A DNA stretch of 64,000 nucleotides from Alphaproteobacteria bacterium (lineage in GTDB: Bacteria > Pseudomonadota > Alphaproteobacteria > GCA-2746255): positions 1,990,056 to 2,054,055 of the forward strand of contig OZ252220.1 of NCBI GenBank assembly GCA_965249135.1. The letters are read 5' to 3'. Below the pieces are notes generated by a model. The model had not been told where the DNA came from and searched no databases. It worked only from the letters and a program-made list of their open reading frames with translations. The position numbers and the translations under genes were made by a program. Shown piece after piece: positions 39,575 through 42,806 of this stretch. Every line of letters starts with the position of its first letter. Positions within the stretch are counted from its first letter, which is position 1.

Positions 39575-39775
39575 ATGGCTGCAAGCTCCGATAAGCCAAC
39601 ACCATCCGCCGTACCTTCCGCGAGAAGGGTGGAAGGGAAGAAGAAGCGAAAACGAAAAAAAGGCAGCCCGCCGGGTCCGACGAAGGCGGCTCCTGCCGAA
39701 ATCGGCGGGCCGAAAGGGCCGGAGCCGACCCGCTATGGCGATTGGGAGCGAAAGGGCCGTTGCTCGGATTTCTAG
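39575..39775 (+). CDS. DUF1674-domain protein (SDH assembly factor 4-like)
   Basis: C-terminal EIGGPKGPEPTRYGDWERKGRCSDF signature. Confidence 0.75.
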   Translation: MAASSDKPTPSAVPSARRVEGKKKRKRKKGSPPGPTKAAPAEIGGPKGPEPTRYGDWERKGRCSDF

Positions 39776-40062
39776 GCGCCGGAAAATTAGGCCTTAATTC
39801 CCAATTATATACTTTAAAAATACACCATATCTTGTTAAAAAATGGATATCTAGTAAAGGCACGGCGTCAGCATCCTCTCTCTGGTAGAGAGAACTTGCCA
39901 AAGACGGCCGTTTCTGGAATCGATGCAAGGTTGAATGCTAGGAAAAAGGCCGGGGCTTGTAATCCCGGCCTCTATAGGCGTCCCCGCTGCAATTTATCGG
40001 AACCGCCGCGGGGCATTGGATTTCTGTAGTAGGGCTTATCTAGCCTCAAGCGCTTCCTTCGT

Positions 40063-40138
40063 CAAGGCGGTTCTCTTACGAGAAGGAGAACCGCTATGAA
40101 CAAGGCGGTTCTCTTACGAGAAGGAGAACCGCTATGAA
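40063..40138 (+). repeat. perfect 38-bp tandem duplication (caaggcggttctcttacgagaaggagaaccgctatgaa x2); each copy carries an SD-containing hairpin and an ATG
   Basis: Read directly: 40063-40100 equals 40101-40138. Hairpin cggttctc / gagaaccg encloses or abuts AAGGAGA. Confidence 0.9.
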
Positions 40139-40367
40139 AAAGCGGAAAATCGTTGATGCAAGGGCGGACAAAGAGGGTGACATCACCCATGTCCGTTTCG
40201 AAGATAACTCTCGATTTACCTCTGTCGAGCAGGCCATTCCGATGGCCGATCGCGGGGAAATCAAAGACACCCATGTTGTCAGACGCCAAAATGCGAAGAC
40301 GCACTTGCGGACGGACCGCGATGGCAGGAAAAGCAACAACCTCGATTACATGGCTGGCGGCGGCTAA
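40134..40367 (+). CDS. DUF3892-family small protein
   Basis: 77 aa; DITHVRF...SVEQAI...TH(L)RT.RDG...NNLD pattern recalled as DUF3892; SD in the duplicated leader. Confidence 0.55.
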   Translation: MKKRKIVDARADKEGDITHVRFEDNSRFTSVEQAIPMADRGEIKDTHVVRRQNAKTHLRTDRDGRKSNNLDYMAGGG

Positions 40368-40527
40368 AGCCAGTAGGTGAAGCGCGGCTTCATAACGCGT
40401 TCATTCCTGTAATCGTCGAGATTCCGATACAGGTTGGCCGTTATGGAGCCGTCTTCATCGTCCCGGTTCATCGTCCCGGAATATTTCGCTCGCGATATAA
40501 ATTTTATCGTCCAAGACGACGAGATAA

Positions 40528-40698
40528 TCATAGTTTCTCAGCATCATCGCGGTGCTTCGTTTGCGGTTTGGCTTTTGGTTTACGTGGACGCGGGGGCGTG
40601 TTCAACATGCGACGAATGACTGCTTTTTCAATAGGACGCTGGCGGATGCTCTTATCGGTCACGACTTTGTTTTTATTACCTTTTTTTGTATCAGTCAT
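40528..40698 (-). CDS. small basic hypothetical protein (56 aa, K/R/P-rich)
   Basis: Unlisted ORF MTDTKKGNKNKVVTDKSIRQRPIEKAVIRRMLNTPPRPRKPKAKPQTKHRDDAEKL with an AAGG-type RBS. No recognisable family. Confidence 0.25.
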   Translation of the reverse strand: MTDTKKGNKNKVVTDKSIRQRPIEKAVIRRMLNTPPRPRKPKAKPQTKHRDDAEKL

Positions 40699-40748
40699 CG
40701 TAGCTACCTTGGGCTGGTAAAAAATAAACGGCTGCTTTTAAAGAGGGG

Positions 40749-41210
40749 GTGAACAATACCGTGCAGCAAACCATTTCGCGGGATAAATGGGAGGTCGCTT
40801 TTCTCGAATCGGCAAAAGACACCCTGTTATGGGCGGCTGATTATTGTGCTTGGGCCATACAAAGGAAGTGGGAGACTGGCGATACTCGCTCCTTTGATTT
40901 GATTGCCGATAAGGTGGCAGTGGAGGCAGGGTACACGCCATTACTATTAAAGAAAGCGAGACCCGCAATCTTAGCTATCCTTTCGGAGGTGCCCAGGGGC
41001 ACTTTCGCTAAGCAAGGGTCCCGCTTCTGGAACCTACAGAATCACGGCTGGCAAGGAAGGTCAAATCACAATCAACCGCGCCTCAACCAAACCAACCATC
41101 TAGCTTTTTCAAGCACTTGTCGGACGTTTAGCCTGGCAAGCCGAAGCTTCGGCAATTCACCACCCTTGAGACCTCCCATAGGTAAGCCGTTTGCCTTCGA
41201 TGCCTCTTAA
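40749..41210 (+). CDS. hypothetical protein (GTG start after AAGAGGGGG RBS); C-terminal ~20 codons overlap the transposase 3' end
   Basis: ORF with a strong RBS; no recognisable family. Confidence 0.35.
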   Translation: MNNTVQQTISRDKWEVAFLESAKDTLLWAADYCAWAIQRKWETGDTRSFDLIADKVAVEAGYTPLLLKKARPAILAILSEVPRGTFAKQGSRFWNLQNHGWQGRSNHNQPRLNQTNHLAFSSTCRTFSLASRSFGNSPPLRPPIGKPFAFDAS

Positions 41211-42081
41211 GGCCATATCCGCACGGGTGGCATCCTCAATCTTGCGGGTGTTGTAGCGGAAATCGAACTCCGCCAGGTACCGATGAAGGTGTTTCTCTTG
41301 GCAGTGCTGGTAAACGCCCCTCATGCCCCGTTTAAATACGCTGAAATAGGTTTCCACGGCATTCGTGGACTCACCCGAAGGGCCGACATACTGACCCCTA
41401 GCGTGAACGACCGTCCTGTGGGCTGCGAACTCCTTGCCAAGTTTCGTATAGATGCGGCTTTCGTCCGTATGCAATTCCGACTTGCGGGAGATGTGACGGA
41501 CGAGAATTTCACGCACCGTCCGGGCATTGGCCGTTTTAACATTGAAGGAGCGAACACTACCGCCGGGCTCTACTAGGGTCACGACCGAGCGCTTTTTGGA
41601 CAGGCCCTTTTTCTCCGGCCATTTCTTGCCGCGCACTACATCCTTGGAGCCGAAGTAGGTTTCGTCCACCTGGATGGCCTTGCCGGGGCCGCCCATAGGC
41701 GAGGAATTGTCCCCTCGCATGGGCCTCGCGGATGCGGTGGGCCATGAACCACGCCGTCTTGTAGGTAATGCCAAGCATCCTGTGTAGTTGGTGGGCGCTC
41801 ATGCCCTTCTTGGAGGCGCAAATAAGGTGGTTCGCCGCCAACCATTTATGCAGGGGGACGTGGGAGCGCTCGAAAAGGGTGCCTACCGTCACGGAGAACT
41901 GCTTTCTGCAAGCGCCGCAATGCCATAGGCCGGGGCGGGCTGCCTTGCCGCGAATTCGCGTCGAGCGGCCTTTCTTGCCACAATGAGGGCAAGTAGGAAT
42001 TTTGTCCGGCCAGCGGGCCGATTCCAGCCATTTCCGGGCTGTTTTCTCGTCGTGAAACCGCTTTTCACCAAGGCTTACCAT
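41157..42081 (-). pseudogene. IS1595-family transposase, frameshifted (ORF pieces 41557..42081 and 41157..41774; shift at C4/G4 run 41711-41714)
   Basis: N-terminal zinc-ribbon (CPHCG...CGACRK) and ...YKTAWFMAHRIREAHARG in one frame; ...KAIQVDETYFG... DDE domain in the other. Confidence 0.75.
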
Positions 42082-42323
42082 CTTCTTAGCTCCTTCATAT
42101 CCTTACATAAAGGAGCATATCGGAATCAGAGTGTATGTGTCAAGTATATAATTAGGCCTTAATTCCTTAATTAAGATTATTAACCTAAAAATTCTTGCTT
42201 TGTTCCAGGATCCGTTCCACACTTTCGACGGATTTCAGCCGGGCGAGGGCAATTTTCATACGCCCGTATTCAGGCAGGCCGGGCCTGCCGTGGAATAATC
42301 CGGCACATGCAATGGTAAGAAGG

Positions 42324-42806
42324 GTAAGGAGGATGATCGGTTCCTTCCGGCCTTTTACACTCTTCTTCGGTCTCGTTCTTGGCTTCTGGGCTTCGGCTGC
42401 AGATGCAGTGGAAGCGTTGCCGGGGCCGGCGCCGGCGCGAGTGCTGCGCGTCGTCGATGGCGACACACTGGTTGTGCGGGCCAGGGTTTGGCCGGGCCAT
42501 CAGGTGGAAACGCTCGTCCGCCTTAAGGGCATCGACGCACCGGAACTGAAGGCAGGCTGCGAGAGAGAACGTGCCCTTGCTCACCAGGCGCGTAGCTTTC
42601 TGGAACAACATGCCGCCGAAGGGCCCGTCTGGCTCTCGGATATCCGTTTCGGGAAATATGCCGGTCGGGTCCTCGCGCGCGTAACGGTCGATTCCGGGGC
42701 GGATCTAAGCATGCAGCTGTTGGCGGTCGGCCTCGCACGCGTCTATGCAGGGGGCGCGCGCCTTTCCTGGTGCGGCGAAACGCATTCGGAGCACACGACG
42801 CCTTAA
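42324..42806 (+). CDS. thermonuclease (SNase)-family secreted nuclease (start at [12 protein letters not shown] signal peptide)
   Basis: SNase motifs VVDGDTL...RL.GIDAPE. Confidence 0.75.

Follow-up and report, generated by a model that had tools for sequence, protein, structure and literature searches.

A probable transporter insertion sequence of the IS1595 family between a DUF1674 gene and a thermonuclease gene in an alphaproteobacterium

A 64,000-nucleotide stretch of an alphaproteobacterial genome (GenBank assembly GCA_965249135.1, contig OZ252220.1; the window in what follows) carries an inserted segment between a DUF1674 gene and a thermonuclease gene. We read positions 39800-42156, with high confidence, as a single-copy transporter insertion sequence (IS) of the IS1595 family, ISNwi1 group, which has an 8-bp target-site duplication and a frameshifted transposase gene. 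A DUF3892 gene, an open reading frame (ORF) for a small basic protein and the remnant of a DUF3800 gene lay inside the terminal repeats together with the transposase gene, and the whole unit was missing from the empty sites of related genomes. The original prediction, made from the sequence alone, had described an IS1595-family element with captured cargo. The non-transposase genes do move with the element, but the gene-carrying region seems to be ancestral to the clade and not a local capture, because all 60 relatives were 1.6-3.7 kb long and most of them had the small basic ORF.

Insertion site and ends of the element

The insertion could be read directly from closely related genomes. Seven conspecific metagenome assemblies (L081-L087; loci are cited by such numbers) were reached through thermonuclease homologues that were 96-97% identical. 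In all seven, the spacer between the DUF1674 and thermonuclease (SNase) genes read …cgccggaaaATTAGGCCTTAATTCCttaattaagatt…, with a single copy of a 17-mer and without the element. The flanks of the window were 99.0-99.4% identical to these assemblies, and the full-length comparisons, which covered 3.8 kb per side, contained no indels except that L084 and L085 differed by 6 bp, in frame. The alignments of the left flank up to 39799 and of the right flank from 42157 had exactly 8 bp of the empty site in common, and the inserted length was 2365 bp, made up of the 2357-bp element and the duplication. Since the whole interval was missing from the seven empty sites, it arrived in one event. The insertion is recent and strain-specific. 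Its placement between the two host genes, proposed beforehand, was verified by the Pfam matches of both genes as well as by the empty sites. At the level of the genome, the DUF1674 gene was parted from the downstream thermonuclease gene, and a DUF3892 gene was gained. The element thus offers a clean, dated case of strain-specific insertion.

The termini of the element were AT-rich, as had been noted, with a GC content of 0.41-0.49 versus about 0.60 in the flanks. The mirrored, imperfect inverted repeats described earlier were also found. They paired 42 nt at 76% complementarity (39784-39825 with 42131-42172), and their 12-nt core, AATTATATACTT, was confined to the two outer ends within the window. 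As read from the sequence, the 26-nt terminal repeats were identical at 22 of 26 bases and began with CC(C/T)AATTATATACTT. The 17-mer AATTAGGCCTTAATTCC occurred at exactly two sites in the window, 39785-39801 and 42150-42166, and was not a common motif; 0.13 matches with up to three mismatches were expected by chance. The original prediction had given the right copy correctly and the left copy one base too low, and had taken the two copies to bound the element. The repeat itself stands, but the empty-site overlap and the relatives put the true duplication at 8 bp, CCTTAATT. The target of the insertion was AATTAGG/CCTTAATT/CC, and the element tips were CC…AATTAGG. The 17-bp repeat is therefore an 8-bp duplication plus 9 bp of identity between tips and target, because the duplication was extended by 7 and 2 host bases that happened to be identical to the element tips.

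The register of the ends was compared among related elements. A transposase scan with one genome per species yielded 80 loci at 51-65% identity. All belonged to Alphaproteobacteria or to unclassified proteobacterial metagenome-assembled genomes (MAGs), except for one MAG labelled Cellvibrionaceae. Both ends were located in 67 of the 80 loci by means of the conserved core ATTATATAC(T/G)TGAC, with the tip set four bases outside this core. A perfect 8-bp direct repeat was seen in 56 of the 67, and at least 7 of the 8 positions matched in 60, in the same register as in the window. These 60 elements formed the comparison set for length, target and gene content. Their lengths ranged from 1638 to 3734 bp.

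Two other readings of the boundaries had to be weighed against these observations. The interval might be a plain transposase-only IS of about 1.1 kb beside unrelated DNA, in which case the match at 39800 would be a solo or unrelated end. Plain IS1595-family members of about 1.1 kb do exist, and the passenger part showed no DNA similarity to other elements. However, the repeat core occurred only at the outer ends within the 64 kb, and no second inverted repeat was found near 41100-41160, the place where one would have split the unit. Moreover, in all 60 relatives the transposase stop lay 600 bp or more from the distal repeat, and none was about 1.1 kb long. The seven empty sites, which lacked the entire 2365 bp and on which the flanks overlapped by 8 bp, ruled out a plain IS with a solo end, and we give this reading next to no weight. 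The 17-bp repeat could instead be the crossover core of an att-like, site-specific recombination, or a true 17-bp target duplication. It was perfect and had one copy in the empty site, and the insertion register could not be fixed from the window locus alone. In contrast, the ORF list and Pfam revealed no integrase or recombinase gene within the element. Relatives inserted at targets unlike their tips (L002, L019, L049, L007, L080 and L074) repeated exactly 8 bp, which is also the norm of the family (PMC8101967), so that the true duplication is 8 bp; the extra 9 bp were fully explained by the tip/target identity. A 17-bp att core was rejected on account of the exact 8-bp repeats in relatives and the missing recombinase gene, and the chance that the longer repeat has either of these origins appears very small.

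Under the preferred reading of a transporter IS, the element would have entered the DUF1674-thermonuclease spacer by DDE transposition. By analogy with the family, the transposase bound to both terminal repeats would cut the target with an 8-bp stagger, and repair would then duplicate CCTTAATT. The features of the element and of its flanks are collected in Table 1.

Table 1. Coordinates of the element, its parts and the neighbouring host genes in the window
Feature	Position	Strand	Evidence
Whole element	39800..42156	- (transposase strand)	Absence in seven conspecific assemblies; ends in register with 60 relatives
Target flank AATTAGG, host DNA matching the right tip of the element; outer part of the 17-bp repeat	39785..39791		Single in empty sites; clade target consensus AGG
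Left 8-bp target-site duplication CCTTAATT	39792..39799		8-bp flank overlap on empty site; register of relatives
Distal terminal inverted repeat (away from transposase start) CCCAATTATATACTTTAAAAATACAC	39800..39825	+	Inverted repeat; core kept in relatives
Non-coding subterminal stretch	39826..40062	.	No match to related elements
Two perfect 38-bp tandem copies (hairpin-rich stretch)	40063..40138	+	Direct repeat, 100% identity
DUF3892 gene, 77 aa, passenger	40134..40367	+	Pfam DUF3892 2.6e-12
Candidate ORF, 55 aa; ATG overlaps stop of small basic ORF (ATGA, putatively translationally coupled)	40364..40531	-	ORF list; coding status uncertain
Small basic protein, 56 aa, conserved in clade	40528..40698	-	Family profile, codon pattern
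ORF of 153 aa, putative DUF3800 remnant	40749..41210	+	BLASTP to L077 DUF3800 protein
IS1595-family transposase gene, 307 aa if repaired; broken by one extra base at 41721	41157..42081	-	Pfam, NCBIfam, tblastn
Promoter-like site for transposase, TTGACA, 18-nt spacer, TATGCT	42114..42143	-	Consensus scan, 10/12 matches
Proximal terminal inverted repeat, minus-strand reading CCTAATTATATACTTGACACATACAC	42131..42156	-	Inverted repeat; relatives
Right 8-bp target-site duplication CCTTAATT	42157..42164		Empty-site overlap; register of relatives
Target flank CC, host DNA matching the left tip; final 2 bases of the 17-bp repeat	42165..42166		Empty site; CC is target consensus
Host gene DUF1674, 66 aa, left flank, outside element	39575..39775	+	Pfam DUF1674 1e-16; adjoins empty site in L081, L084, L085, L086
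Host gene thermonuclease (SNase), 157 aa, right flank, outside element	42333..42806	+	Pfam SNase 8e-9; P0001 97% and P0002 96% identical

Transposase and passenger genes

The transposase was encoded jointly by two overlapping ORFs on the minus strand, 42081..41557 and 41774..41157. It matched the Pfam domains Zn_ribbon_IS1595 (PF12760, 9e-12) at the N-terminus and DDE_Tnp_IS1595 (PF12762, 7e-33), and the NCBIfam model of IS1595 transposases (NF033547) scored 199 bits against a cutoff of 75. Alignment by tblastn with two 68%-identical homologues placed the frame switch between 41722 (…AHRIREA) and 41720 (MRGDN…), with the extra base falling after codon 120. The earlier description of a frameshifted IS1595-type transposase was therefore correct. 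The zinc ligands Cys31, Cys34, Cys55 and Cys58 and the residues Asp139, Asp206, Glu243 and Lys250, the last located seven residues past Glu243, were invariant in 20 homologues and were all retained in the window transposase. The closest proteins in a database of 5.8 billion clusters were 68-69% identical, apart from a fragment from the same genome (P0168). No second copy of the element at 90% identity or above was found in the databases searched, and a search of plasmid DNA returned only 68-75% matches to the transposase part, with no copy on known plasmids. In the best promoter-like site for the transposase, the predicted -35 hexamer TTGACA (42143-42138) lies inside the proximal terminal repeat, and TTGAC is kept at the same place in the repeats of relatives. 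Binding of the transposase to this repeat could thus repress its own promoter.

About 1.3 kb of non-transposase DNA separates the transposase stop from the distal repeat. The outermost stretch, 39826..40062, had no blastn similarity to 59 other elements and no Rfam match. The hairpin-rich stretch noticed earlier turned out to be a perfect tandem duplication of 38 bp. Each copy contains a 9-bp stem (GCGGTTCTC/GAGAACCGC) that takes in both the GGAGAA ribosome-binding site and the DUF3892 start codon. The two copies can also pair with each other as one long hairpin (-53.6 kcal/mol, z = -5.7). Reading of the sequence showed that the first copy gives rise to an upstream ORF of 13 codons, MNKAVLLREGEPL, with a TGA that overlaps the DUF3892 ATG. 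The duplication probably arose very recently by slippage and might change how the DUF3892 gene is translated. A match of MIR6154 to the tandem repeat was rejected as being at chance level, and nothing in the element reached the gathering score of Rfam.

The DUF3892 gene appears to be intact. It had no homologue in the other elements, so the window copy is unique among the 60 compared. An AlphaFold model of its protein from the single sequence reached a predicted local distance difference test (pLDDT) value of 61, which is low confidence. For the 55-aa candidate ORF, Pfam gave only a sub-threshold match, and the related elements held no homologue of it. The 153-aa ORF, listed in the original prediction as a hypothetical gene beside the DUF3892 and 56-aa basic genes, is present as they are, but by its sequence it is a 5'-truncated remnant of a DUF3800 gene and not an intact gene. 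Its first 59 residues aligned with positions 148-208 of a DUF3800 protein of L077, which is intact and 220 aa long (BLASTP 2e-12, 38% over 61 aligned positions); this protein itself matched Pfam DUF3800 at 1.6e-7. The truncation follows from the lack of room upstream for the N-terminal ~147 residues. The ORF itself had no Pfam match, the part past residue 59 was unmatched, and the last 54 nt (41157-41210) run antisense into the 3' end of the transposase gene. Look-ups of the exact DUF3892 protein, the 153-aa ORF, P0168 and P0242 found no record. A weak match to DUF3800-XI RNA lay about 500 bp from the DUF3800 remnant, at 41675-41713 (+), antisense within the transposase gene. Its 20.9 bits fell short of the gathering score of 37.8 (E = 0.15), and it was set aside as being at chance level.

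The small basic protein is one of a family that shares the motif (D/N)E(V/T)L(R/K)RMLxTPPKPH and, after it, a tail rich in Lys and Pro; for the clade-conserved 56-aa protein the motif can also be written (V/I)(L/I)RRMLxTPP(K/R)P(H/R), again with such a tail. The family was recovered only via the related loci. Word-based searches with the single 56-aa sequence gave nothing and phmmer gave 0 matches in 1.8 billion representatives, results that are uninformative for so short and low-complexity a query. A family profile hidden Markov model (HMM) detected the protein in 44 of the 60 related elements. Pairwise differences at codon positions 1, 2 and 3 were 0.35, 0.21 and 0.58, indicating that the small ORF is translated and that selection acts on the protein. 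It is convergent with the transposase gene in 42 of the 44 elements, and lies on the transposase strand in L034 and the window element. It had no counterpart among the families of Pfam, NCBIfam or PADLOC. In 474 kb of flanking DNA, the profile matched outside the elements at one locus only, L033, where other copies abut. Upstream of the element, two extra small-protein ORFs occurred there at distances of ~1.1-1.3 kb and 3.9-4.1 kb; together with an abutting IS end, they suggest that several related elements form an array at this site. Functions of the small protein and of the DUF3892 protein can be proposed from sequence only. The DUF3800 remnant and the DUF3892 gene would ride along passively, and the 56-aa gene belongs to the backbone of the clade.

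Some variation was also seen in the host DNA next to the element. The 6-bp in-frame indel among the conspecifics lies in the thermonuclease gene, which encodes 155 aa in L084 and L085 versus 157 aa in the window. L086 and L087 differ by one substitution in the AT-rich spacer just past the target site (attattaacc to attactaacc).

Gene slot and target preference of the related elements

Across the 60 elements, conservation at the DNA level was confined to the transposase gene, as judged by all-against-all comparison of ORFs and by blastn. The remaining space held variable genes. In 35 of the 60, one very divergent family of ~200 aa was encoded beside the small basic ORF, for example at element positions 1422-2162 of L011. 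Its members shared only 11-26% identity. Trp, Arg and His were invariant and Glu nearly so, and an R-x4-H motif was invariant in 16 aligned members. A ~270-aa family occupied the slot in seven elements, and DUF3800 or AAA_15/AAA_23 ATPase genes were found elsewhere. The window element had neither the ~200-aa nor the ~270-aa family. Scans of the relatives' cargo proteins with Pfam, PADLOC and NCBIfam identified DUF3800 and AAA_15/AAA_23 and no other family. The R-x4-H family gave no significant match to Pfam, PADLOC, NCBIfam or sequences of the PDB, either in profile or in per-member scans. Its best HEPN match was to HEPN_RiboL-PSP, in one of 16 members and not significant (E = 0.1). The motif is reminiscent of the R-x4-6-H of HEPN nucleases, and the family may be HEPN-like at the level of a guess from this motif.

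The reconstructed empty sites of the same elements revealed a common target. The four bases before the eight duplicated ones were T, A, G and G in 31, 41, 46 and 50 of the 60 sites, respectively, and the four bases after them were C, C, T and A in 49, 43, 44 and 37. The consensus is thus palindromic, tAGG-N8(A/T-rich)-CCTa. The bias persisted in elements with GGCG or CGCA tips and therefore reflects the choice of target, not the way in which the boundaries were placed. Such a symmetric consensus would fit a transposase dimer touching both sides of the target, and contact with both sides is a general feature of DDE transposons (PMC2577343). The palindromic target also accounts for over-long direct repeats that could otherwise be mistaken for att sites. 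No description of a palindromic target for IS1595-family elements was found in the literature searched.

A recurrent location was observed among these insertions. In nine of the 60 species (L024, L028, L033, L038, L047, L052, L054, L055 and L060), the element sat at TAGG-N8-CC/TTGAC(g/a)…N17…TAGGGTT, just before the -35 hexamer of a promoter that is conserved among genera. Downstream of this promoter, most of the nine loci had an ORF of ~160-200 aa and then a large terminase gene; the terminase of L055 matched Terminase_6N at 2.6e-26 and Terminase_6C at 8.3e-26. The arrangement presumably resembles the head of a cluster of the gene-transfer-agent (GTA) type. A second IS end abutted the site in L028, L052, L033 and L038, forming tandem insertions, and the promoter site may be an insertion hot spot. 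In L065, the left flank read by eye showed an insertion right after a sequence like the 3' end of a tRNA, …GGTTCGAGTCCGGCCAGGGGCACCA/AGG-N8-CC. This is a further example of elements landing intergenically beside RNA genes or promoters. The literature searched held no description of the conserved small protein, the exchangeable gene slot or the insertions at the terminase promoter.

The activity of the window copy and the role of the extra genes allow further readings. The frameshift could be programmed, as in IS1 and IS3, or be a sequencing error, with the copy really active. All catalytic and zinc residues are intact, the insertion is recent enough to be absent from assemblies with 99% identical flanks, and the extra base falls in a run of three identical bases. 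On the other side, the transposases were continuous in the 20 nearest database homologues, which were all uninterrupted ORFs, and in all 60 related elements, so a programmed shift is not a trait of the family. The GCC-C-ATG site, as read from the sequence, is also not a slippery heptamer, and a programmed frameshift was rejected on both grounds. A real mutation is more likely than an assembly error, since the flanks were free of indels over 7.6 kb versus L081 and the assembly does not seem prone to them. We consider an active copy unlikely; the transposase is probably inactivated by the frameshift. As for the small basic protein and the R-x4-H protein of relatives, they might be functional parts of the transposon, namely a regulator, a factor for target choice, or an addiction or defence module that would help the element to be retained. 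The presence of the small ORF in 44 of 60 elements under purifying selection, the single divergent R-x4-H family in 35 of 60, and the DUF3800 and AAA_15/AAA_23 ATPase genes in other slots, which are typical of defence islands, are consistent with such roles. However, neither family has a significant match in Pfam, PADLOC, NCBIfam or the PDB sequences, the likeness to HEPN is one of motif only, the window element has no R-x4-H gene, and 16 of the 60 elements have no detectable small ORF. Functional roles of this kind are possible but somewhat doubtful.

Beyond the transporter IS in the window, we tentatively suggest, without giving it the better odds, that the clade might be a small multi-gene transposon. 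It would combine a conserved accessory protein, 45-60 aa long and marked by RRMLxTPPKPH, an exchangeable gene slot and a palindromic target, and the window copy would be a decayed member. The slot would hold mostly the fast-evolving, possibly HEPN-like R-x4-H gene, and otherwise a DUF3800, ATPase or DUF3892 gene. The target tAGG-N8-CCTa would repeatedly steer elements to the position upstream of the -35 of the GTA-like terminase-cluster promoter. The comparison itself shows that ISNwi1-type elements systematically pair a gene slot with a conserved small protein and choose a defined palindromic target. If the accessory genes proved functional or the target preference were confirmed, these elements would provide a compact model of tiny transposons that ferry variable, possibly defence-type genes in Alphaproteobacteria.

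Comparison with known systems

In ISfinder, passenger-bearing members of the ISNwi1 group are 1.75-4.75 kb long with ends of the form ggnnatTAT, and the catalytic signature of the group is DDEK. The zinc ribbon is N-terminal in all IS1595 groups except IS1016. The family as a whole is known for 8-bp duplications and a zinc finger (PMC8101967). We compared the window transposase with reference domains for the seven IS1595 groups (S2 File of PMC8101967), represented by 11 ISfinder references, on a trimmed domain alignment and with no tree. It was 55% identical to ISNwi1 (197 bits over 177 aa) and 32% identical to ISSpo8, while the references of other groups reached at most 30%; transposases of the ISNha5 group were 26-29% identical. 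The tips of the window element were CCCAATTAT and CCTAATTAT, those of L002, L039 and L053 were GGCGATTAT, and those of L056 and L080 were GGCAATTAT. The ATTAT core is shared, and the first two bases differ. The GG-tipped relatives (GGCGATTAT) agree with the ggnnatTAT form, and the CC tips of the window element are a variant.

Several points weigh against placing the segment as a transporter IS of this group. The window tips are CC(C/T)A, and the GGnnATTAT form occurs in some relatives only. No second copy was found in the databases searched, so the ends rest on the empty site and on relatives that are 51-69% identical. The frameshift leaves autonomous mobility of the window copy unsupported. 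In spite of these points, judged from its sequence, the element is a genuine transporter IS with well-defined bounds, a new one within the ISNwi1 group that would merit a name of its own.

Compared with ISNwi1 of Nitrobacter winogradskyi and its group, the element shares the zinc ribbon with DDE_Tnp_IS1595, the DDE residues with a Lys seven residues on, the 8-bp duplication, the ATTAT(ATAC) repeat core and the presence of extra genes in the space from the transposase to the distal repeat. It differs from ISNwi1 in that its transposase is only ~55% identical and frameshifted, in its CC(C/T)A tips in place of GGnn, and in its own set of passengers, which are a small ORF on the transposase strand, a DUF3800 remnant and a DUF3892 gene. 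The category of transporter IS, which carry passenger genes, was based on the IS1595 family by Siguier, Gagnevin and Chandler (2009), a study cited in PMC3129680 and PMC11891212. Like transporter IS so defined, the window element is IS-sized and combines IS ends and a transposase with genes unrelated to transposition. One example, ISNha5, has a transcription regulator as its passenger, and the window passengers differ from it. A further difference is that the elements of the window clade have part of their passenger region, the small ORF, in conserved form.

Mobile insertion cassettes and miniature inverted-repeat transposable elements, such as MIC231, likewise have IS-type inverted repeats around non-transposase DNA, and the window copy resembles them in being movable only by a transposase supplied in trans. 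In contrast to these elements, which have no transposase gene, the gene in the window is one base from intact. Finally, the symmetric target consensus centred on the duplicated bases is shared with DDE cut-and-paste transposons such as the P element and others (PMC2577343). The consensus of the window clade differs from theirs in being unusually strong for a bacterial IS and in mirroring the commonest tips of the clade.

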